From NCBI RefSeq assembly GCF_053078305.1, contig NZ_CP166875.1: a DNA stretch of 64,000 nucleotides, one strand, 5' to 3'. Origin of the DNA: a plasmid. Shown piece by piece: positions 25,132 to 46,733 of this stretch. The position numbers were made by a program, and so were the translations under genes. The notes beneath the pieces are model-generated. The model saw only the letters and a program-made list of their open reading frames with translations. It made no database searches and was not told where the DNA came from. Position 1 is the first letter of the stretch. Each line of letters begins with the position of its first letter.

Positions 25132-27330
25132 ATGAGTTTTAACGCAAAGGATATGACCCAGGGCGGTCAGATTGCGTCCATGCGTATCCGCATGTTCAGC
25201 CAGATCGCCAATATCATGCTTTACTGCCTGTTTATTTTTTTCTGGATCCTCGTTGGTCTGGTTTTATGGGTAAAAATAAGCTGGCAGACGTTTGTGAACG
25301 GCTGTATTTACTGGTGGTGCACCACGCTGGAAGGCATGCGGGATTTAATCAGGTCCCAGCCGGTCTATGAGATCCAGTATTACGGCAAAACCTTCCGGAT
25401 GAACGCGGCTCAGGTACTGCATGATAAATACATGATCTGGTGCGGTGAGCAGCTATGGTCTGCATTCGTTCTGGCGTCTGTCGTGGCCCTGGTTATCTGC
25501 CTGATCACCTTCTTTGTTGTCTCCTGGATTCTGGGGCGTCAGGGTAAACAGCAGAGTGAAAATGAAGTCACAGGTGGTCGTCAGCTGACTGACAATCCGA
25601 AAGAGGTTGCCAGGATGCTGAAAAAAGACGGCAAGGACTCCGATATCCGGATTGGCGATCTGCCGATTATCCGGGATTCTGAAATCCAGAATTTCTGTCT
25701 GCACGGCACGGTCGGGGCCGGTAAGTCGGAAGTTATCCGTCGTCTGGCCAACTACGCCCGTCAGCGCGGTGATATGGTGGTGATTTATGACCGATCAGGG
25801 GAATTTGTTAAAAGTTACTATGACCCGTCCATCGATAATATCCTGAATCCGCTGGATGCCCGCTGTGCCGCCTGGGATTTGTGGAAGGAGTGCCTGACAC
25901 AGCCGGATTTTGATAATACGGCAAATACCCTGATCCCGATGGGCACAAAAGAAGACCCGTTCTGGCAGGGCTCAGGACGCACCATTTTTGCGGAAGCGGC
26001 GTACCTGATGCGTAATGACCCCAACCGCAGCTACAGCAAACTGGTGGATACACTACTCTCCATCAAAATTGAAAAACTGCGTACCTTCCTGCGTAACTCA
26101 CCGGCGGCCAACCTGGTGGAAGAGAAAATCGAGAAAACGGCGATTTCCATCCGTGCTGTGCTGACCAACTACGTGAAAGCCATCCGTTACCTGCAGGGGA
26201 TTGAGCATAATGGTGAGTCCTTCACCATCCGTGACTGGATGCGGGGTGTCCGTGAAGATAAGAAAAACGGCTGGCTGTTTATTTCGTCGAATGCCGACAC
26301 CCATGCTTCCCTGAAACCGGTGATCTCCATGTGGCTGTCCATCGCCATTCGTGGCCTGATGGCGATGGGGGAGAACCGTAACCGTCGTGTGTGGTTCTTC
26401 TGTGATGAGTTACCCACGTTACACAAACTGCCGGACCTGGTGGAGATCCTGCCGGAAGCCCGTAAGTTCGGTGGCTGTTATGTGTTCGGTATCCAGTCCT
26501 ATGCCCAGCTGGAAGATATCTACGGTGAGAAATCGGCAGCCTCGCTGTTTGACGTCATGAACACCCGTGCCTTTTTCCGTTCCCCCAGCCATAAGATTGC
26601 AGAGTTCGCTGCCGGTGAAATTGGTGAGAAAGAGCACCTGAAAGCCAGCGAGCAGTATTCCTACGGTGCTGATCCGGTACGTGACGGGGTATCGACCGGT
26701 AAGGATATGGAGCGCCAGACGCTGGTCAGTTATTCCGACATTCAGTCTCTGCCGGATCTGACCTGTTATGTCACCCTGCCCGGACCGTATCCGGCAGTAA
26801 AACTCTCCCTGAAATATCAGGCACGACCGAAGGTTGCTCCGGAGTTTATTCCGCGTGACATCAATCCTGAAATGGAGAACCGTCTGAGTGCCGTACTTGC
26901 CGCAAGGGAAGCAGAAGGTCGTCAGATGGCCAGCCTCTTCGAACCGGATGTCCCGGAGGTTGTTTCCGGAGAAGACGTGACTCAGGCTGAACAGCCGCAA
27001 CAGCCGCAACAGCCGCAACAGCCGCAACAGCCGCAACAGCCGCAACAGCCGGTGTCTCCTGCCATCAACGATAAGAAGTCAGATGCAGGTGTGAATGTTC
27101 CGGCAGGGGGGATCGAGCAGGAGCTGAAAATGAAACCGGAAGAAGAGATGGAACAGCAACTGCCACCCGGGATCAGTGAATCCGGTGAAGTGGTGGATAT
27201 GGCCGTTTATGAGGCATGGCAACGGGAGCAGAATCCGGATATCCAGCAGCAGATGCAGCGCCGTGAAGAGGTGAATATCAACGTGCACCGGGAGCGCGGG
27301 GAGGATGTTGAGCCGGGAGATGATTTCTGA
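25132..27330 (+). CDS. traD: TraD type IV coupling protein
   Basis: 732 aa, Walker [10 protein letters not shown]-terminal QPQ repeats as in F TraD. Confidence 0.95.
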
Positions 27331-36888: not shown

Positions 36889-37171
36889 GCTGCCGGGCGG
36901 GGACGGAAGTCCCCGCTTTCCGGAAGTGTGAGGTATTTCAGGGGCAGACACCCGACATGCCAGAAACCGCCGGTCCCGCCCGGGGCCGGCACACAGGTTA
37001 AGGCATTTCCTGTTTTTCAGCCATTTCGCAACAAAAATCACATTAAACAACAGTAATCACCGTTGATTTGTGCGCCAACACAGATCTTCGTCACAATTCT
37101 CAAGTCGCTGATTTCAAAAAACTGTAGTATCCTCTGCGAAACGATCCCTGTTTGAGAATTGAGGAGGCGAG

Positions 37172-37432
37172 ATGTCGCAGACAGAAAATGCAGTGACTTC
37201 CTCATTGAGTCAAAAGCGGTTTGTGCGCAGAGGTAAGCCTATGACTGACTCTGAGAAACAAATGGCCGCTGTTGCAAGAAAACGTCTTACACACAAAGAG
37301 ATAAAAGTTTTTGTCAAAAATCCTCTGAAAGATCTCATGGTTGAGTACTGCGAGAGAGAGGGGATAACACAGGCTCAGTTCGTTGAGAAAATCATCAAAG
37401 ATGAACTGCAGAGACTGGATATACTAAAGTAA
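37172..37432 (+). CDS. copB: CopB (RepA2) transcriptional repressor of repA
   Basis: 86 aa, matches IncFII CopB; position upstream of copA/repA1. Confidence 0.85.
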
Positions 37433-37494
37433 AGACTTTACTTTGTGGCGTAGCATGCTAGATTACTGATCGTTTAAGGAATTTTGTGGCTGGC

Positions 37495-37585
37495 CACGCC
37501 ATAAGGTGGCAGGGAACTGGTTCTGATGTGGATGTACAGGAGCCAGAAAAGTGAAAACCCCGATAATCTTCTTTAACTTTGGCGA
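37495..37585 (-). ncRNA. copA: CopA antisense RNA (approximate bounds)
   Basis: region between copB and tap matches remembered R100 copA target sequence; bounds estimated. Confidence 0.55.
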
Positions 37586-37656
37586 GTGAGAAAGATTACC
37601 GGGGCCATCTAAAAACCGTATAGCCAACAATTCAGCTATGCGGGGAGTATAGTTAT

Positions 37657-37731
37657 ATGCCCGGAAAAGTTCAAGACTTCTTTCTGTGCTCGCTCCTTCT
37701 GCGCATTGTAAGTGCAGGATGGTGTGACTGA
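37657..37731 (+). CDS. tap: Tap (RepA6) leader peptide
   Basis: 24-codon [27 protein letters not shown] ending just after repA1 GTG start. Confidence 0.6.
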
Positions 37732-38581
37732 TCTTCAACAAACGTATTACCGCCAGGTAAAGAACCCGAATCCGGTGTTTACACCCCGTAAAGGTGCCGG
37801 AACGCTGAAGTTCTGCGAAAAACTGATGGAAAAGGCGGTGGGCTTCACCTCCCGTTTTGATTTCGCCATTCATGTGGCGCATGCCCGTTCGCGTGGTCTG
37901 CGTCGACGCATGCCACCGGTGCTGCGTCGACGGGCTATTGATGCGCTGCTGCAGGGGCTGTGTTTCCATTATGACCCGCTGGCCAACCGCGTCCAGTGTT
38001 CCATTACCACACTGGCCATTGAGTGCGGACTGGCGACAGAGTCCGGTGCAGGAAAACTCTCCATCACCCGGGCCACCCGGGCCCTGACGTTCCTGTCAGA
38101 GCTGGGACTGATTACCTACCAGACGGAATATGATCCGCTTATCGGGTGCTACATTCCGACCGATATCACGTTCACACCGGCGCTGTTTGCCGCCCTTGAT
38201 GTGTCTGAGGATGCAGTGGCAGCTGCGCGCCGCAGCCGTGTGGTATGGGAAAACAGACAGCGCAAAAAGCAGGGGCTGGATACCCTGGGTATGGATGAGC
38301 TGATAGCGAAAGCCTGGCGTTTTGTCCGTGAGCGTTTCCGCAGTTACCAGACAGAGCTTAAGTCCCACGGCATGAAACGTGCCCGTGCGCGCCGCGATGC
38401 AGGCAGAACCCGCCAGGACATTGTCACCCTGGTGAAACGGCAGCTGACGCGTGAAATCGCGGAAGGGCGTTTCCGGGGAAGCCTGGAGGCCGTGAAGCGC
38501 GAAATCGACCGTCGTGTGAAGGAACGCATGATAATGTCGCGTAACAACAACTACACACGGCTGGCCACTGCCTCCCCCTGA
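37724..38581 (+). CDS. repA1: RepA1 IncFII replication initiator (GTG start)
   Basis: [22 protein letters not shown]... near-identical to remembered R100 RepA1. Confidence 0.9.
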
Positions 38582-38599
38582 GTTTTACCTCATCTGAAT

Positions 38600-38900
38600 A
38601 ATCCGGCCTGCGCCGGAGGCATCTGCACGCCTGAAGCCTGTCAGCGAACAAAAAAACAGCACCACATACAAAAAACAATCTCATCATCCCGCTTCTGGTG
38701 CATCCGGCCCCCCTGTTTTCGATACAAAACATGCCTCACTGACGGGGAATTTTGCTTATCCACATTTAACTGCAAGGGACTTCCCCATAAAGTTACAACC
38801 GTTCATGTCATAAAGCGCCAGCCGCCAGCCTTACAGGGTGCAATGTATCTTTTAAACACCTGTTTATATCTCCTTTAAACCACTTAACTACATTCATTTA
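38600..38900. promoter_or_regulatory. oriR-type origin region with DnaA box TTATCCACA at 38756-38764
   Basis: DnaA box and AT-rich stretch downstream of repA1 as in R1/R100. Confidence 0.6.
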
Positions 38901-39157
38901 AAAAGAAAACCTATTCACTGCCTGTCCTGTGGACAGACAGATATGCACCTCCCACCGCAAGCGGCGGGCCCCGACCGGAGCCACTTTAGTTACAACACTC
39001 AGATACAACCACCAGAAAAACCCAAGTCCCGCGCAGAACTGAAACCACAAAGCCCCTCCTCATAACTGAAAAGCGGCCCCGCCCCGGCCCAAAGGGCCGG
39101 AACAGAGTCGCTTTTAATTATGAATGTTGTAACTATACTCCATCATTGCTGTCAGTA

Positions 39158-39427
39158 TTCTGGCTGGAAGTCCTCAGTACACGCTCGTAAGCGGCCCTCA
39201 CGGCCCGCTAACGCGGAGATACGCCCCGACTTCGGGTAAACCCTCGTCGGGACCACTCCGACCGCGCACATAAGCTCTATCATAGCTGACAGCGGGTATG
39301 GCTTTGCAGGGTGGGGATGGGTAAGGTGAAATCTATCAATCAGTACCGGCTTACGCCGGGCTTCGGCGGTTTTACTCCGGTATCACATGTAACCACAGCG
39401 TGCCGCCTTACATGCGCTGACGCGCAT
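39158..39427. repeat. 270-bp GC-rich structured segment, copy A (IncFII ori-downstream type)
   Basis: ~90% identical direct repeat of 41040-41310. Confidence 0.7.
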
Positions 39428-39516
39428 AAACAACAAGTTGCTACATTAGCTTACAGGTTAATTCACCTTGCATAAGATTAGCATATAGGTTAATGTTTAT
39501 CGAAATGGGAGGTCAT

Positions 39517-39846
39517 ATGTTTAGCGTTGTTTATCACCCGGAAGCCAGGGAAGAAGCCACAGCATTACCCATAAAAATCAGGGTGAAGTTTGACCGTCTC
39601 ATCAGCAAACTGGAATATGACGCCCGATTACTGCGGGAACCGGATACAAAGCCCCTGGGGGATGGACTTTTTGAGATCCGCACGATGGGGACGGACATAG
39701 CCAGAGGCATCTGGGTATACCACAAAGGCAATACCATCATCATGCTCCGGGTTTTCATCAAGAAGTCTCAGAAAACGCCAGCAAAAGAAATCGATCTCGC
39801 CAAAAAGCGGTTAGCGGAGGTACTTAATGAAACTGGTAAGCCATAA
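39517..39846 (+). CDS. HigB/RelE-family toxin
   Basis: toxin-first order followed by overlapping HTH gene. Confidence 0.65.
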   Translation: MFSVVYHPEAREEATALPIKIRVKFDRLISKLEYDARLLREPDTKPLGDGLFEIRTMGTDIARGIWVYHKGNTIIMLRVFIKKSQKTPAKEIDLAKKRLAEVLNETGKP

Positions 39847-40108
39847 AGAACTGCATAACGAGTGGATGCAGGACGACGAATATCGCGCTGCATGGCAGGA
39901 AGAAGAACGTAAGGAGAAACTCAGGGAGTTGCTTGCAGAATGGCGTAAGCATGACAATTTGACAAAAGCGCAGGTTGCTGAACGCATGGGGGTTACTCCT
40001 CCTGTTATTTCCCGCCTGGAAAACAACATCACTAAAGCCAGCATCGACACCCTGACTCGCTATGCCCATGCGTGCGGTATCAAAAAACCTGTTATTACGC
40101 TGTACTGA
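39827..40108 (+). CDS. HigA-like HTH-XRE antitoxin
   Basis: 93 aa, HTH motif LTKAQVAERMGVTPPVISRLEN. Confidence 0.65.
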   Translation: MKLVSHKELHNEWMQDDEYRAAWQEEERKEKLRELLAEWRKHDNLTKAQVAERMGVTPPVISRLENNITKASIDTLTRYAHACGIKKPVITLY

Positions 40109-40296
40109 ACTCTGCTCTATGGCTGCCAGTTCTGGAGAAATCAGTAACTAAATTTTAATTAGCTACGTTATGGTAAATCTGCCTGATGTGTCGATTTCTC
40201 TGAAAGTAATTCGGCTTCTGTGGGCTGCGTTTGCCTTGTGCCACCTGAATGTAATCACTATGATTAAATATGATTAACAACTAATCGGATATACAA

Positions 40297-40575
40297 ATGA
40301 AAAACAATACCGCACAGGCAACAAAAGTAATTACCGCGCATGTGCCATTACCTATGGCTGATAAAGTCGACCAGATGGCCGCCAGACTGGAACGCTCCCG
40401 GGGCTGGGTTATCAAACAGGCACTTTCTGCATGGCTTGCCCAGGAGGAGGAGCGTAATCGCCTGACGCTGGAAGCCCTGGACGATGTGATATCCGGACAG
40501 ATTATCGACCATCAGGCTGTACAGGCCTGGGCAGACAGCCTCAGTACTGACAATCCGTTACCGGTTCCACGCTGA
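40297..40575 (+). CDS. ribbon-helix-helix antitoxin (ParD/CopG-like)
   Basis: 92 aa upstream of and coupled to ParE-like ORF. Confidence 0.6.
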   Translation: MKNNTAQATKVITAHVPLPMADKVDQMAARLERSRGWVIKQALSAWLAQEEERNRLTLEALDDVISGQIIDHQAVQAWADSLSTDNPLPVPR

Positions 40576-40850
40576 TGGAACTGAAGTGGACCAGTAAGGC
40601 GCTTTCTGATTTGGCGCGGTTATATGATTTTCTGGTGCTGGCCAGTAAACCTGCCGCCGCCAGAATGGTACAGTCCCTGATACAGGCACCGGTCATTCTG
40701 TTAACTCATCCACGTATGGGAGAACAGTTGTTTCAGTTTGAACCCAGGGAGGTCAGACGGATTTTTGCTGGCGAGTACGAAATCCGTTACGAACTTAATG
40801 GGCTGCGTTTGGGAAACGTACAATATTGTACGGTTGCGCTATTGCGGTAG
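40575..40850 (+). CDS. ParE/RelE-family toxin
   Basis: 91 aa, ATGA overlap with antitoxin. Confidence 0.6.
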   Translation: MELKWTSKALSDLARLYDFLVLASKPAAARMVQSLIQAPVILLTHPRMGEQLFQFEPREVRRIFAGEYEIRYELNGLRLGNVQYCTVALLR

Positions 40851-41039
40851 GGTGTACTCCAACGCTATACGGTATTTGGCAGACCTTTAGGGACATGAGA
40901 TAACCTAAATGCAATAAGAGAAAAGCAATAACTTAAAGGCGATAGCTGATCACGATGAATCAATCAGTTACTTATCCGCATCGATTAAAAAATGCTCCTA
41001 ACGTACAATAATTCCGTTTCCCAAACCGACCCCTCAGTG

Positions 41040-41310
41040 TTCTGGCTGGAAGTCCTCAGTACACGCTCGTAAGCGGCCCTGACGGCCCGCTAACGCGGAG
41101 ATACGCCCCGACTTCGGGTAAACCCTCGTCGGGACCACTCCGACCGCGCACAGAAGCTCTCTCATGGCTGAAAGCGGGTATGGCTTAACAGGGTGGGAAT
41201 GGGATAGGCGAAATCTATCAATCAGTACCGGCTTACGCCGGGCTTCGGCGGTTTTACTCCGGTATCACATGTAACCACAGCGTACCGCCTTCCATGCCGC
41301 TGGCGCGGCA
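41040..41310. repeat. 270-bp GC-rich structured segment, copy B
   Basis: direct repeat of 39158-39427. Confidence 0.7.
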
Positions 41311-41385
41311 TATCATGGTGACGATATCTGAATCGTTATATACTGTGTATATACGTGGTAATGACGAGGTGATAAATGGCACAGG

Positions 41386-41469
41386 TTAATATGAGTTTAA
41401 GAATCGACGCTGAACTGAAGGATGCTTTTATGGGGTCAGCCTGGAATTCGGAAAATAAACCACGTTAAG
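41386..41469 (+). pseudogene. truncated RHH antitoxin remnant (MAQVNMSLRIDAELKDAF...)
   Basis: 27-codon ORF with RelB/ParD-like N-terminus, no toxin partner. Confidence 0.4.
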
Positions 41470-41640
41470 ACTATTTTTTAGCCAAATGACTGTCAGGAAT
41501 CCGGACGGTCGGAACATTTCGTACAGCCTTTACGTTCAGTGAGTTAGCTGGCCTGGATGTAACCACTCGTTCAACTCAATTCTCTTAGCGTGGGAAAATT
41601 TCCGTTTTCCAAGCGGACCCCTAGAAGAAGGGAAGCGATA

Positions 41641-42057
41641 TCAAGCCCAGGGATTAATAATTGATACTCCGGTTAATTCAAAATCACCAACATTTCTGGT
41701 TACAACCGTCATCCCATGTACCAGCGCCGTTGCTGCGATCAATGCGTCTCGTTCACTGCGCCTGTCGGGAACATGTAAACGAGAACAACGTAATGCAACC
41801 GCAGTATCTACAGGAAGTATCTTATCAGAAAACGCTGGTAACACATGCTGATCCATCCAAGAACGTAGCATAATCCCTTGTCGCATATCTCGACGTTCAA
41901 CTTGTAATATTCCCTGTTCAAGTTCCATTATGGAAATAACAGAAATAAAGAAATCTGCCGCATCTGTATGCAATACCCATTTTGCAACATTATTATCTAT
42001 ACGTCCTGTCCGAGCCTTCCGTAGCTCAGAGATAACATTAGTATCAAGAATATACAC
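41641..42057 (-). CDS. vagD: VapC/VagD PIN-domain toxin
   Basis: 138 aa, MYILDTNVISE PIN motif. Confidence 0.85.
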   Translation of the reverse strand: MYILDTNVISELRKARTGRIDNNVAKWVLHTDAADFFISVISIMELEQGILQVERRDMRQGIMLRSWMDQHVLPAFSDKILPVDTAVALRCSRLHVPDRRSERDALIAATALVHGMTVVTRNVGDFELTGVSIINPWA

Positions 42058-42311
42058 TATAAAAACTCCGCAGGTTTTAAACTAACCGTAATACGAGGCG
42101 GTTCAAATTCAACTGCATCAGCATCGGGCATCGCCAGAATGTCAATGAGAGTTCGTCGTTGTTGCGTCAATTTTCGGTATTCTTCGATACTAAGAAGTAC
42201 ATGTGCGGTTTTACCCCGATCAGTAATAAATACTGGACCATAATTCGTGGCGCGTTTGGCTCGAGTTACATCTTGATTAAGTTCCCGACTGGATAGGGTT
42301 GTAATCTTCAT
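42057..42311 (-). CDS. vagC: VapB/VagC antitoxin
   Basis: MKITTLSSRELNQDV..., overlaps toxin start. Confidence 0.8.
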   Translation of the reverse strand: MKITTLSSRELNQDVTRAKRATNYGPVFITDRGKTAHVLLSIEEYRKLTQQRRTLIDILAMPDADAVEFEPPRITVSLKPAEFL

Positions 42312-42424
42312 GCTGTTGCCTTTTGATGTATATAGGTACGTTACTACATTGTAGGGCATGAAATAGTACAATGCAAGAAATGTACTTGATTAGGGGTAGT
42401 CTTCGCCGCTTGTTGCTGTCAGAT

Positions 42425-42458
42425 ATTAATGCTAATGTATGCATACATTAGCATTAAT
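42425..42458. promoter_or_regulatory. 34-bp perfect palindrome ATTAATGCTAATGTATGCATACATTAGCATTAAT
   Basis: perfect dyad in divergent intergenic region. Confidence 0.45.
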
Positions 42459-42470
42459 GAGGGATGATAT

Positions 42471-42884
42471 GTGAGAGACAAAACCAGGGAGGCCATGCGG
42501 TTTTTTTTAGGCGGCAGGTGTTACACGGCTGAAAACCTTGAAAAGGATTATCTGGCTGAAGTTGCTAATTACAGTGACGACCGCTGGGAAGCACCCCAAC
42601 GCGCCGCACGTCTGGCAGCTGCCGTAAAGCGTTACAAGACATCAGAAATGCTGCGCTTTATTTTTGCTACCACTGCCTACGATCCCGATCCAGATTTAAC
42701 CCCGCTGACTGTGAGACGTTTGTGCAAGGCATTGTTCGGCAGAACAGGAAGCCAGTGGCTGGTTGTTGAAGTTTTTGGGGAGAAGGGGCGTCAGCACCGC
42801 AGCGCGGACAGCAATCCGGAGATGGTGGAAAAAGGGGGTTCGCGCCCATTTCCTCTAAAAGTCTCACCTTGCTTAGGTAATTAA
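42471..42884 (+). pseudogene. hypothetical ORF whose 3' end runs into the Tn3-family left IR
   Basis: ORF C-terminus encoded by IR sequence at 42834-42884. Confidence 0.35.
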
Positions 42885-42890
42885 TTGAAT

Positions 42891-43472
42891 TTATTTATAA
42901 AACGTTGCAATTTTAGCATCATTTTTTATTGTTCTTTTTAACCTGAAGTACGTCGATCGAGAGATACCTGTTTTTTCTGTCACACTGCCCAGAGATTCTC
43001 CCTGTGATATAAGCTCCAACGCTGTAGGCGTTCGTGGATGCTTCTTCCTGCCAAATTTTACGCCTGCGGCAAGTGCCGCTATTCTTCCGTCGTTTGTCCG
43101 CTCCAGAATACGCTCACGTTCCGCTTCAGCTACAGCAGCAAGGATTTGGATAACCATTTTGCCCATTGTCCCTTCTGTACTGAGACCGTTCTCCAGGAAC
43201 CGGATGGCGATCCCCTTTTTGTAACAGCTATCAACCACACGAATCATGTCAGCAGTGTTACGCCCCAGTCGGTCCATTTTTGTACAGATGATTACGTCGT
43301 CTTTCTCTGCACGGGCCAACAACCGCTGTAGTCCTTCCCGTTCATCAGTTGCGCCAGTCATCATATCCGTAAAAATACGATCTTCCCGTACCCCGGCATT
43401 TTTTAGCTCCGAGATTTGATGTGTTAGCTTCTGATGACTGGTTGATACCCGTGCATACCCCAATAACGCCAT
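42891..43472 (-). CDS. tnpR: serine-recombinase resolvase TnpR
   Basis: MALLGYARVSTSHQ catalytic Ser motif, C-terminal HTH. Confidence 0.85.
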   Translation of the reverse strand: MALLGYARVSTSHQKLTHQISELKNAGVREDRIFTDMMTGATDEREGLQRLLARAEKDDVIICTKMDRLGRNTADMIRVVDSCYKKGIAIRFLENGLSTEGTMGKMVIQILAAVAEAERERILERTNDGRIAALAAGVKFGRKKHPRTPTALELISQGESLGSVTEKTGISRSTYFRLKRTIKNDAKIATFYK

Positions 43473-43484
43473 TTTTAGTCTCAC

Positions 43485-43628
43485 TTATCGTTTTTGACAC
43501 TGCATGGTATCATAATGTACAAAATACGATTTTTGAAACCTGCTTTTATGCTGTTTTAGACAGGTATCAGATATCTTAATATTTGATACTAGCCATATTT
43601 AACAAATATTTAGCATTTTGGTAAATGT
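43485..43628. promoter_or_regulatory. res site region between tnpR and tnpA
   Basis: divergent intergenic region with TGTC..GACA-type dyads. Confidence 0.5.
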
Positions 43629-46600
43629 ATGCAGAAGTACAAGAAAAGAATTAGTATATTAACAAAAAGTGAAATAAATGAATTATATCAAGTCCCCTCT
43701 TTTAATCCTGTTGAAAGGGATGAGTTTTTTTCGCTGGATATCAGCCTTAAAAGAGAAATTGATAAAATAATAAATATAGAAAGCAGGGTGTATCTGATAT
43801 TAATAACAGGGTATTTCAGATATAAACCTGTGATTCCTGAATTTACATTAAAAGACGTAAAAAGGGATGTGAAATATATTATCCAGACATATTATAAAAA
43901 CGAAAGTACTAATCTCAATTTAAACATACCTAAAAGTACAAAGTACCGCCTTGTTAAACGAATGCTTTCTACTCTAGGATTTGAACAACTCACCCCATCT
44001 ATAAAAAATGAGTTAAGTGAACGTCTGAATGATGTTGCTACTATATGTATGGAACCAAAATATATTTTTGATGAATTACTTGCTTTTTTAGGACAGCGGC
44101 GTATAGCTCTTCCTGGATACAGTACTGTCCAGAACCTCGTTTCAGATGCTTTAAACTTTGAAAGGAAAAGGACAATTAATATTTTGTCAAAGAGAATTTA
44201 TCCTGCCACTGCACAAAAGATTACATCCATCATCCATGATGATGGAATATTAAATTCCATCAGGGGATATAATTATAGCACGAGAGACTTCTCAGCATCA
44301 GAAATAGAAAATGAATTAAGAACTCACAATGTGATAAGTAGTATTTACTATGAAATAAAAGATATAATTAATTCATTAGGTATATCCCAGGGAAACATGG
44401 AGTACTATGCAACTATCGTAAAACACAGTACAACATTCAGACTTAAGCGACACCCTAAATGGCAAGGAATACTTTATTTGTGCTGCTACTTGTACTTCAG
44501 ATACAGAGAGATAAATGATAAAATAATCACAGCCTTCAGATATTTAGTAAAAAAACATAAAGACGCTTCAGTTTTGTTTGCAAAAGCTCGGGCAACAGAG
44601 GAAATAGATCTAATAAATAAAAAGCTTAAGTTTGCGAGTAAAATATTTAACTTCTTCGTTGATAGTAACATTGAAGACAGCATCCCTTTTGGATATGTTC
44701 GTGAAAAGGTTTTTTCACTTATATCGAAAGATGATATGCATCTTGTGAGTGAATTTTTTGACAAAAATAAAATCGATGTAATTGAATATCAATGGCAGTA
44801 TATTGACAGCCATCACCTTAAGATCGCCAATTCAATCCGAAAGCTTTTTCTGGCTATAGATATAGTATATGACAACGAGAAGTCTGTTATTGGCCAGCAA
44901 ATTACTGCTGCCAAGGATGATCTCAGAGGAAAAGGAAAGCTGGATGCTAAGGATCTGAGGGTAATTCATCCATCCGAGAAAAATTACATTGTAAAAGAAG
45001 GAGAAATTAACACTCAACGATTCGAATTTCATATGTACAGCAGGGTATCTAACCATCTGGAAAACGGTGTCTTTTATGCTGCGGAGAGTGAACAAAACAA
45101 GAGACTGGAAGATGATCTCATAGAACGAAGTTACTGGCATAAGAATAAATCGATTTTGATAGAGAAAACAGGCCTTGAACGACTTATCACACCAATAACG
45201 CAGACTCTTAATGAGCTGGAGAATACCTTTAGCGATAAACTGGCTCGTATAACCATTGGAATAAACTCAGATGCTAATGAGTTTGTGAAAAAACAACCAC
45301 ACTCCAACAGATTACAGTGGAGTCTGGCCAGTAAAAAATGGAAGACCAGCATCGATAATCCGATTTACAATCAGATAAAAAATATCGGAATAGTTGACGT
45401 AATGAAGTATGTAAACAATGAGACGAATTTTTTGTCTGTGTTTAATGCCATATCATCCAGGAAAAATAATCTTGAAGCTGACTATAATGACCTTCTTGCC
45501 TGTATATTTGGTAATGGCGCAAATTATGGTGTTCACAGAATGGCATCTGCATCAGACCGTAGTATTGGAATACTACGTGATGTGAATGACAAATTCATTC
45601 GTCCAGAAACAACAGGAATGGCCAACACAGTAATATCTGATGCAATTGCAAATCTTTCTGTATATAAATACTGGACGATAAATGAAGATTCTCCATTTGG
45701 AAGTGTTGATGGGCAGAAGCACACTTGCAGAATAAATACATTTAAAGCCCGTTATTCTGCCAAGTATTTCAGAAAGGGGAAAGGGGTTTCTGCGATGACA
45801 CTGGTATCTAATCATGTGCCATTATCAACTGTGGTAATTTCTCCAAATGAATATGAAGGTCATTTTGCATTTGACTTGTTATATAACAACACCAGTGAAA
45901 TACAACCAAAGTCATTAGCGACTGACAATCATGGTATAAACAACGTTAATTTTGCGATTCTTGACATTTTTGGCTATCAGTTTTCACCACGTTATGCAAA
46001 ATTCAAGAAAATATTTAATGAATTATTTGATGTTATACTGGAGAGTGATAAACTCATTATAAAACTTAAAAAACAATTTAACTTTAAGCTCATTGAACAT
46101 GAATGGGAAAACATCCAACATATTATTTGTTCTTTAAGCAGAAAAACAACCATTCAAAGTACGGTTGTTAAGAAGTTATCTAATACAAAGCGTAGCAACA
46201 AGACATTAGCAGCACTTCGGGAGTATGACCGAGTTATAAAATGCATATATGTCCTGGATTATGCTGACAATAAAACCTTAAGGCAATTTGTGCAACAAGC
46301 ACTGAACAGAGGTGAAGCTTATCATCAACTAAGAAGAGCAATAGCATCAGTAAATGGAAATCAATTTCGCGGTGGTAATGACTACCAAATAGATCAATGG
46401 AACGACTGTGCGAGGTTAATAGCTAATTGTGTAATCTATTATAATTCAGCAATATTATCCAGGCTGGTCGAGAAATTTGAAAAAGAAAATAATAAAAAAG
46501 CGATAGATGTTCTGGCTAACTTATCCCCAGTAGCATGGAGACACATTCTCCTTGGAGGGAATTATTCTTTTGAAGATCAAGTTGCGATCACAAATTTGGA

Positions 46601-46667
46601 CAGTCTTTTGGAGGGAGTAGACCCACTAAGTGATATCGGAGATATTGAGTCCGAATATGACGGTTAA
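43629..46667 (+). CDS. tnpA: Tn3-family transposase TnpA
   Basis: 1012 aa, AT-rich, typical size for the family. Confidence 0.9.
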   Translation: MQKYKKRISILTKSEINELYQVPSFNPVERDEFFSLDISLKREIDKIINIESRVYLILITGYFRYKPVIPEFTLKDVKRDVKYIIQTYYKNESTNLNLNIPKSTKYRLVKRMLSTLGFEQLTPSIKNELSERLNDVATICMEPKYIFDELLAFLGQRRIALPGYSTVQNLVSDALNFERKRTINILSKRIYPATAQKITSIIHDDGILNSIRGYNYSTRDFSASEIENELRTHNVISSIYYEIKDIINSLGISQGNMEYYATIVKHSTTFRLKRHPKWQGILYLCCYLYFRYREINDKIITAFRYLVKKHKDASVLFAKARATEEIDLINKKLKFASKIFNFFVDSNIEDSIPFGYVREKVFSLISKDDMHLVSEFFDKNKIDVIEYQWQYIDSHHLKIANSIRKLFLAIDIVYDNEKSVIGQQITAAKDDLRGKGKLDAKDLRVIHPSEKNYIVKEGEINTQRFEFHMYSRVSNHLENGVFYAAESEQNKRLEDDLIERSYWHKNKSILIEKTGLERLITPITQTLNELENTFSDKLARITIGINSDANEFVKKQPHSNRLQWSLASKKWKTSIDNPIYNQIKNIGIVDVMKYVNNETNFLSVFNAISSRKNNLEADYNDLLACIFGNGANYGVHRMASASDRSIGILRDVNDKFIRPETTGMANTVISDAIANLSVYKYWTINEDSPFGSVDGQKHTCRINTFKARYSAKYFRKGKGVSAMTLVSNHVPLSTVVISPNEYEGHFAFDLLYNNTSEIQPKSLATDNHGINNVNFAILDIFGYQFSPRYAKFKKIFNELFDVILESDKLIIKLKKQFNFKLIEHEWENIQHIICSLSRKTTIQSTVVKKLSNTKRSNKTLAALREYDRVIKCIYVLDYADNKTLRQFVQQALNRGEAYHQLRRAIASVNGNQFRGGNDYQIDQWNDCARLIANCVIYYNSAILSRLVEKFEKENNKKAIDVLANLSPVAWRHILLGGNYSFEDQVAITNLDSLLEGVDPLSDIGDIESEYDG

Positions 46668-46733
46668 CAACATGATAAATAATGGTTTTTATGCTAAGAG
46701 TGAGACTTTTGGAGGAAATGGGCGCAGAACCCC

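Follow-up and report, generated by a model that had tools for sequence, protein, structure and literature searches.

The window, by which is meant the whole stretch of 64,000 nt of plasmid DNA analyzed here (contig NZ_CP166875.1 of assembly GCF_053078305.1), holds four toxin-antitoxin (TA) loci within 3 kb next to the origin of its resident IncFII replicon, namely a Gp49/HTH_3 pair, CopG-ParE', yacA' and phd-vapC (Table 1). These loci are distributed behind two copies of the segment located downstream of the IncFII oriR, which form a 264-bp direct repeat (copies A and B), each followed by a different TA gene set. Since the copies are only 95% identical (41034–41297 against 39152–39415), they should stem from different plasmid lineages. 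Copy B starts at the base directly after the outer end of a miniature element, TIME-1, and is 91–96% identical to the segment after repA in three comparison loci (L001, L004, and L005). A preliminary description, made from the letters alone, had noticed an orphan truncated antitoxin gene behind this second repeat copy, and its placement is correct.

Table 1. Features of the TA region and its surroundings, with positions in the window.
Feature	Position	Strand	Description
CopA RNA	37549–37639		Resident IncFII replicon
repA	37712–38581		Resident IncFII replicon
Repeat copy A	39152–39415	+	oriR-downstream segment of the resident IncFII replicon
Gp49/HigB-like toxin and HTH_3 antitoxin genes	39493–40108		117 aa (Pfam Gp49, 81 bits) and 93 aa; intact, directly after copy A
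CopG antitoxin gene	40297–40575		Intact
parE' toxin gene	40575–40801	+	Truncated at about codon 75 of 91 by the TIME-1 IR-L
TIME-1	40800–41033	+	234-bp MITESen1-like miniature element joining truncated parE to copy B
Repeat copy B	41034–41297	+	IncFII oriR-downstream segment, left boundary of the TA slot
yacA upstream region	41294–41375	+	Contiguous with yacA in all intact comparators
17-bp palindrome	41337–41353		TATATACTGTGTATATA; putative YacA operator
Chimeric ORF	41376–41468	+	yacA codons 1–19, then 11 codons and TAA from the TIME-2 IR-L
yacA remnant	41376–41433	+	Codons 1–19 (MAQVNMSLRIDAELKDAFM) and 1 nt
TIME-2	41432–41621	+	190-bp Tn3-derived inverted-repeat miniature element, short form
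TIME-2 IR-L	41432–41469	+	GGGGTCAGCCTGGAATTCGGAAAATAAACCACGTTAAG; 38-bp Tn3-family terminal inverted repeat
TIME-2 IR-R	41584–41621	-	GGGGTCCGCTTGGAAAACGGAAATTTTCCCACGCTAAG; outer end at 41621
vapC	41641–42057	-	PIN-domain toxin (Pfam PIN, 51 bits), convergent with the yacA stub
phd/yefM-type antitoxin gene of vapC	42057–42311	-	Annotated 84-aa form; Pfam PhdYeFM_antitox; annotation in L003
Compact Tn3-family transposon	42834–46733		Own 38–40-bp repeats (GGGGTTCTGCGCCCATTTCC...)
tnpR	42891–43484	-	Resident Tn3-family transposon
tnpA	43629–46667	+	Resident Tn3-family transposon

The TA slot that follows the oriR-downstream segment is occupied by different modules in different plasmids, including yacAB (L001, L007, and L008), CopG-ParE (L005) and an inverted phd-vapC (L004). 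The combination of a Gp49/HigB-like toxin and HTH antitoxin, followed by CopG-ParE, is found in L006 as well as in the window after copy A, where the Gp49/HTH_3 pair and its counterpart in pSTEC2018_166-a share 99% identity. A hairpin lies between the conserved segment and the variable slot (41294–41311 and 39410–39427 in the window, 3262–3279 in L004). Its stem is kept by paired changes (ATGCCGC..GCGGCAT, ATGCGC..GCGCAT, and ATGTCGC..GCGACAT), and it may represent a terminator or a recombination boundary. The ParE toxin gene of the window is damaged: the match to the intact parE of L005 and L006 breaks off at 40801, the Pfam ParE_toxin match extends from profile position 1 to 71 of 89, and the reading frame ends with 15 codons encoded by TIME-1, leaving the CopG antitoxin probably with a dead ParE toxin. 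TIME-1 is 76% identical to MITESen1 over 229 aligned positions (MITESen1 sequence: PMC13367494, Table S2). No target duplication was found around it, and a 100% identical TIME-1 is present in another context in pSTEC2018_166-a (L017).

The ORF that follows copy B is chimeric. Counted from the authentic YacA ATG at 41376 it comprises 30 codons (MAQVNMSLRIDAELKDAFMGSAWNSENKPR and a stop codon), of which codons 20–30 and the TAA are the IR-L of a second miniature element, TIME-2, read in frame; the tail reads ...FMGSAWNSENKPR. The preliminary description had reported a 27-codon ORF at 41386–41469. The ORF does exist, but those coordinates are one base too high and the frame they define is full of stops, whereas translation of 41385–41468 yields 27 codons and a stop (VNMSLRIDAELKDAFMGSAWNSENKPR), the first of which, GTT, is no start codon. 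The label “RelB/ParD-like N-terminus” was a fair one. Of the 58 nt at 41376–41433, all 58 are those of yacA, an agreement far above chance, and YacA is a RelB/DinJ-like ribbon-helix-helix (RHH) protein. The 58/58 match is to yacA of Escherichia albertii pEA13_1 (L001) and E. coli pRHB25-C13_3 (L008), and 57/58 bases agree with yacA of pECOS88 (L007). An identity search with a 605-bp query around the ORF matched more than 5000 plasmid records; window positions 41036–41433 align with 96–98% identity (E = 0) to plasmids whose matching gene bears the annotation “type II toxin-antitoxin system antitoxin YacA.” Over the 342 bp 5' of the yacA start (41034–41375), identity to the DNA upstream of yacA elsewhere is 96–98%. 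Intact yacA in E. coli genomes matches the window exactly up to base 41433, where the match ends. The ORF is unannotated by PGAP, and no model of Pfam or NCBIfam matched the 30-aa peptide, which is too short for such searches. We are nearly certain that the ORF is a 5' stub of yacA cut at the end of a TIME; as such, it is an ordinary pseudogene of an already known antitoxin, which annotators can label as a yacA fragment.

The full-length homolog that the preliminary description proposed to look for in related plasmids was found. Intact yacA measures 270 bp (89 aa) and overlaps yacB (92 aa), both genes following repA and the oriR-downstream segment in L001, L007, and L008. YacB matches Pfam ParE_toxin with 63 bits and the NCBIfam RelE/StbE models; full-length YacA gives sub-threshold RelB/DinJ and RHH matches only (Pfam and NCBIfam). 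A tblastn search with YacA retrieved 2179 PLSDB records, most of them with an intact YacA N-terminus, and yacAB is located downstream of the IncFII oriR in thousands of plasmids. The module has been described as over-represented on ColV/ColBM plasmids, near colicin genes (PMC4707298). Intact YacAB modules and the stub agree in the first 19 codons, in the sequence preceding them and in being placed behind the IncFII oriR-downstream segment; in contrast, only 21% of the antitoxin gene survives and the toxin gene is missing. Homology stops after codon 19, well short of the full 89 aa with the C-terminal region that define the YacA family. The absence of a partner toxin, as well as the loss of a TA module claimed on its basis, are borne out across the 64-kb window: the best tblastn match of YacB has E = 6, and neither the 3' part of yacA nor the exonuclease gene (exo) usually found after yacB was detected. 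A different kind of damage is known from Shigella pWR100 (pINV), where a frameshift in yacB leaves a full-length orphan YacA (PMC7354431; PMC9455713), whereas the antitoxin gene itself is destroyed in the window.

The endpoints of the loss can be placed to the base. On the left, yacA homology stops after nt 57–58 of the gene (41432/41433), where a 38-bp inverted repeat of the Tn3 family begins with its outer GGGG, the two bases GG at 41432–41433 being common to yacA and the repeat; on the right, the endpoint is the outer end of the TIME-2 IR-L. This repeat is unique in the window, with 0 occurrences expected by chance. IR-L and IR-R agree at 29 of 38 positions and follow the pattern GGGG...ACGYTAAG. 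The TIME-2 copy of the window carries no transposase or resolvase gene, only chance ORFs of at most 31 aa, and lacks 96 internal bp that are found in copies of 284–286 bp, the missing segment being flanked by ATC microhomology. The 284-bp form contains a TGTCCGAAAT...TGTACA motif that looks like a resolvase subsite, and the 96-bp segment may on this resemblance hold a res site. Compared with named TIMEs, IR-L matches the IRL of IMU at 30/38 and that of TIME244 at 29/38 positions, the Tn21-subgroup type being closest. IR-R agrees at 36/38 positions with the terminal repeat after a truncated Tn3-family tnpA in Klebsiella pneumoniae pIT-422-FIIFIB, the product of which is 75% identical to a protein labeled Tn2501 transposase and 68% identical to the ISPa38 family. 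A Tn2501/ISPa38-like TnpA is thus a candidate helper for TIME-2.

The far end of TIME-2 abuts the 3' end of phd-vapC, with the junction CCCC|TAGAAGAAGGGAAGCG (vapC). VapC is annotated as a VapC family toxin in L003 and L004, and its antitoxin scores 23.7 bits with the NCBIfam model phd_fam (cutoff 20.8). Upstream of the phd/vapB antitoxin gene lies a perfect 35-bp palindrome (42425–42459), which recurs in STEC plasmids, attracts spurious sub-threshold Rfam mir-155 matches and probably serves the phd-vapC operon as operator or terminator. Further right, an ORF that STEC plasmids have in intact form (WP_001562850.1) is split by the resident Tn3-family transposon. The flanks of this transposon, GAAAA on one side and TGTAT on the other, form no 5-bp duplication. 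On the right, colinearity with the uninterrupted site is lost, which implies a further rearrangement at that end. TA pairs carried inside Tn3-family transposons next to res/tnpR have been described (Lima-Mendez et al. 2020, PMC7157771), and the window resembles these cases in having Tn3-family ends close to type II TA genes of the ParE, Gp49/HigB, and PIN classes. However, the published pairs are passengers inside the transposon. In the window, every TA gene is external to the repeats, element ends have damaged two of these genes, and the tnpR-tnpA transposon resident there is free of TA genes.

TIME-2 copies with the same ends and different flanks are present in L001, L005, L008, L012, and L013. 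In L001, yacA-yacB and 8 nt of exo are followed by TIME-2 and cvi, and in L008 yacA-yacB and 672 nt of exo are followed by TIME-2 and unrelated DNA. A cbi-side region, TIME-2 and cvi succeed one another in L005, L014, L015, L018, and L019; among the YacAB comparators, TIME-2 lies between yacAB or the cbi region and cvi. In pLAO40 (L012), TIME-2 lies in inverse orientation within the palindrome of the yacA operator; it occurs in an IncK2/Z plasmid context in L013 and is missing from the yacAB-exo region of pECOS88, which represents the “empty” backbone. The cvi-linked copies have a common right flank and different left flanks (L001 compared with L005, L014, and L015). All left flanks of TIME-2 are AT-rich pentamers (TTATG, TTATG, AATAA, and ATGTA). 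From its varied flanks, TIME-2 would appear to be mobile.

By blastn, DNA related to TIME-2 was found in at least 4926 PLSDB records, often in at least two places per record, 556 of them covering at least 80% of the element; the features annotated under every match were “none” or unrelated genes. The right 120 bp alone recur, 98% identical, on a very large number of IncF plasmids from E. coli, Klebsiella, Salmonella, and Shigella. A scan of species-representative genomes with the inner 29-mer of IR-L returned one locus only, a hybrid fragment beside pemIK on a contig of Escherichia sp. MOD1-EC7003 (L016), which is uninformative on target duplications. There, the left 105 bp of TIME-2 are fused at a CGAAATCGTAC motif to another Tn3-type terminal repeat (1659–1800), and this hybrid is located directly beside pemI-pemK, another TA pair at the end of a TIME. 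A second composite, in plasmid C of E. coli M11 (L010, 2415–2680), consists of the right two-thirds of TIME-2 followed by two nested Tn3-type repeat ends (..GCGGACCCC and ..CAAACTGACCCC).

Like published TIMEs (PMC4133298; PMC13367494), TIME-2, at 190–286 bp, is free of transposase genes, bounded by 38-bp GGGG...TAAG ends, plasmid-borne and present in multiple contexts. It has Tn3-type repeats of about 38 bp, a length below 500 bp and sequence breaks that fall exactly at the repeat ends in six contexts with distinct flanks. The 5-bp target-site duplication expected around some copies of a TIME was absent from all six of these independent contexts, which form a small sample with a bias toward rearranged parts of plasmids. 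In its interior, TIME-2 resembles none of IS101, IMU, MITESen1, and TIME244 (sequences from PMC13367494, Table S2), with global alignment scores of 12–34, compared with 90 for TIME-1 against MITESen1. The published work screened for resistance-gene structures (PMC4133298; Gomi & Yano 2026, PMC13367494), whereas the junctions of TIME-2 are next to TA genes. TIME-2 apparently represents an unnamed and unannotated TIME family which is unlike the four named TIMEs compared and widespread on plasmids.

How yacA came to be truncated is best considered across the yacAB-exo backbone as a whole. Four independent junctions in this backbone fall exactly on the outer base of TIME-2, in the yacA operator, at yacA nt 57, at exo nt 8 and at exo nt 672. 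In the three with direct orientation (exo nt 672 in L008, exo nt 8 in L001, and yacA nt 57 in the window), IR-L points toward the yacAB side. This pattern argues for a truncation anchored on a transposon end and against random deletion, because the same element ends at different depths of one backbone without target-site duplications. The loss thus appears to have been made by a transposase acting on the end of TIME-2. A precedent is given by a Tn3-family element, Tn1331delta::IS26 in pAAC154-type plasmids, in which sequential deletions at both ends, attributed to intramolecular transposition, removed the target-site duplications and truncated a neighboring gene on one side and then on the other (PMC5142620). 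Both cases share a deletion exactly at the end of an element, a lost target duplication and a truncated neighbor gene. In the published case, however, ancestor and products were sequenced from one plasmid pool and the element is autonomous, whereas the ancestor of the TIME-2 arrangement was not found and TIME-2 needs a transposase in trans.

As the most likely route we favor a “cis” pathway of intramolecular replicative transposition, at about even odds of being right. TIME-2 would first have been resident next to vapC, and its end would then have attacked, in leftward direction, a TTATG site within yacA on the same molecule. The DNA between the two would have been excised as a circle and lost along with the left target duplication of TIME-2, the transposase being supplied in trans by a cognate Tn21/Tn2501-like transposon. 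A missing target duplication is to be expected under this route, because an end-adjacent deletion replaces one flank together with its duplication. The predicted ancestor, in which yacAB precedes TIME-2 and vapC, was searched for with a chimeric query of yacB, spacer, TIME-2 and the end of vapC, and no PLSDB record covers at least 80% of it. Against the cis route, the outer 5–12 bases of IR-L differ among copies, which could be decayed ends. The right flanks also differ among the backbone series of L008, L001, and the window, which calls for more than one event per lineage. No cognate TIME-2 transposase is encoded in the window. The resident Tn3-family transposon was considered as a helper and rejected, as its repeats match those of TIME-2 at 9–15 of 38 positions and its TnpA is 26% identical to the candidate helper.

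The main rival reading, possible albeit rather unlikely, is that TIME-2 was instead inserted in codon 19 of yacA with a TTATG duplication and subsequently recombined with a second copy next to vapC, the intervening DNA being deleted or swapped. Partner copies would have been at hand, given the abundance of TIME-2-like DNA in PLSDB and its frequent presence at several places in one record, and the window copy joins an outer IR-L sequence like that of L001 with an IR-R like that of L008, as a recombinant might. The motif of the 284-bp form, a putative resolvase subsite, would also suit such an exchange. This route requires three events, two insertions and an exchange, as opposed to two for a cis-deletion, and the three junctions in the same orientation would arise in roughly one of four cases under independent insertions. 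Moreover, the junction of TIME-2 with vapC always has the yacA stub as its left flank in PLSDB, and the reciprocal junction of IR-R (...CCAAGCGGACCCC) with the rest of yacA (TTATGGCCGCTGCAAAAAGC) was not found there. Four rows that appeared to cover this reciprocal junction in full turned out to come from intact plasmids, where non-colinear pieces, yacA and an element further downstream, had been joined. Recombination between TIME copies has, on the other hand, been proposed for MITESen1 structures without direct repeats (PMC13367494).

A deletion independent of the element, caused by replication slippage or illegitimate recombination at the GG microhomology and coinciding with the repeat end by accident, is very improbable. 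The 2-nt GG overlap at the junction is what such an event would leave, and the 96-bp internal deletion of TIME-2 with its ATC microhomology indicates that deletions of this type do occur here; nevertheless, the endpoint is the exact outer base of the repeat at four junctions of the backbone and again at the TIME-1/parE junction 630 bp upstream, while chance placement within 1 bp over about 1 kb is estimated at roughly 0.2–0.3% per event.

The scar is shared with other plasmids. The junction of yacA', TIME-2 and vapC recurs with 98.8% identity over 41225–42833, 28 PLSDB records encode exactly the same 30-aa product, and the junction is found in 5 of 5426 complete E. coli genomes, all of which are human STEC. 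On the STEC plasmids it is located about 24 kb from the repA-HigB-like-CopG-ParE block, with other DNA left of 41225, and the resident Tn3-family transposon is absent. Since these plasmids carry the junction in different surroundings, the scar predates the present arrangement of the window, which as a whole is reproduced by no database record. Salmonella NZ_CP082930, the closest-looking plasmid for the 8.4-kb region, was set aside as it aligns in non-colinear pieces. An inverted fragment of the exonuclease gene lies just left of the oriR-B/yacA' segment in STEC plasmids (26380–26739 in pSTEC2018_166-a), which hints at an inversion in the history of the STEC lineage.

The stub retains an intact upstream region, a Shine-Dalgarno-like GAGGTGA directly 5' of the ATG at 41376 and the start codon. 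Promoter activity may accordingly be supposed from its upstream region, although a simple scan of 41000–42500 gave no hit to the sigma-70 consensus. A search of 37000–43000 against Rfam found the CopA of the replicon only and nothing at the stub. In RelB/ParD-type antitoxins, the C-terminal region binds the toxin and completes the dimeric fold. The 19 residues of the stub correspond to the first strand and part of helix 1 of the RHH domain, and the C-terminal 70 residues are absent. The stub is predicted to be inactive because the toxin-binding residues are missing, a prediction drawn from domain logic; almost certainly it is non-functional, able neither to repress nor to neutralize YacB, and only marks an event. 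That the ORF is a yacA stub at the end of a TIME and at the same time without function is very probable as a joint statement.

A working peptide is accordingly a most improbable reading, whether it acted as a mini-antitoxin or repressor, countered addiction to incoming yacAB plasmids or carried the secretion signal of the YacA N-terminus. Its expression signals are those just named, the ORF recurs in the PLSDB records and the five STEC genomes, and the full-length orphan YacA of Shigella has been reported as a substrate of type III secretion (PMC7354431). The identity of the stub across records is, however, uninformative on selection, because all copies descend from one inherited junction and independent conservation is lacking. 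Furthermore, 11 of the 30 residues are set by the transposon repeat, an orphan or anti-addiction antitoxin would be an intact one whereas 19 of 89 codons are present, and the peptide is neither matched by family models nor annotated. A chance ORF without homolog, the outcome under which the preliminary description would have been overturned, is excluded by the 58/58 nt identity to yacA and the conserved upstream synteny, since a full-length YacA homolog exists at the same plasmid position.

The stub had also been taken to support a history of module replacement at this site. In substance this was right, as the occupants of the slot vary, but neither a plain deletion nor a clean one-for-one swap describes it. 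To judge from the arrangement of the DNA, the slot would have been remodeled by stacking of copies A and B and by erosion at transposon ends, without clean cassette exchange. The stub alone matters little; its value is that of a scar of remodeling at the ends of tiny non-autonomous Tn3-type elements by the IncFII origin. More speculatively, and with considerable doubt, TIME-2 might be an undescribed Tn3-derived element, widespread and unannotated on plasmids of the IncF/IncI complex, which together with MITESen1-like elements provides the main breakpoints for shuffling, stacking and inactivating TA cassettes by the IncFII origin. If this were true, plasmid addiction modules would generally be turned over through such elements, and the stubs of yacA and parE would be two outcomes of that process. 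Annotation pipelines leave such TIMEs unmarked. Their recognition would account for many hitherto unexplained breakpoints in the IncF plasmids of virulence and resistance, those of STEC and ColV type included, and would improve plasmid typing based on TA loci such as yacAB (PMC9455713).
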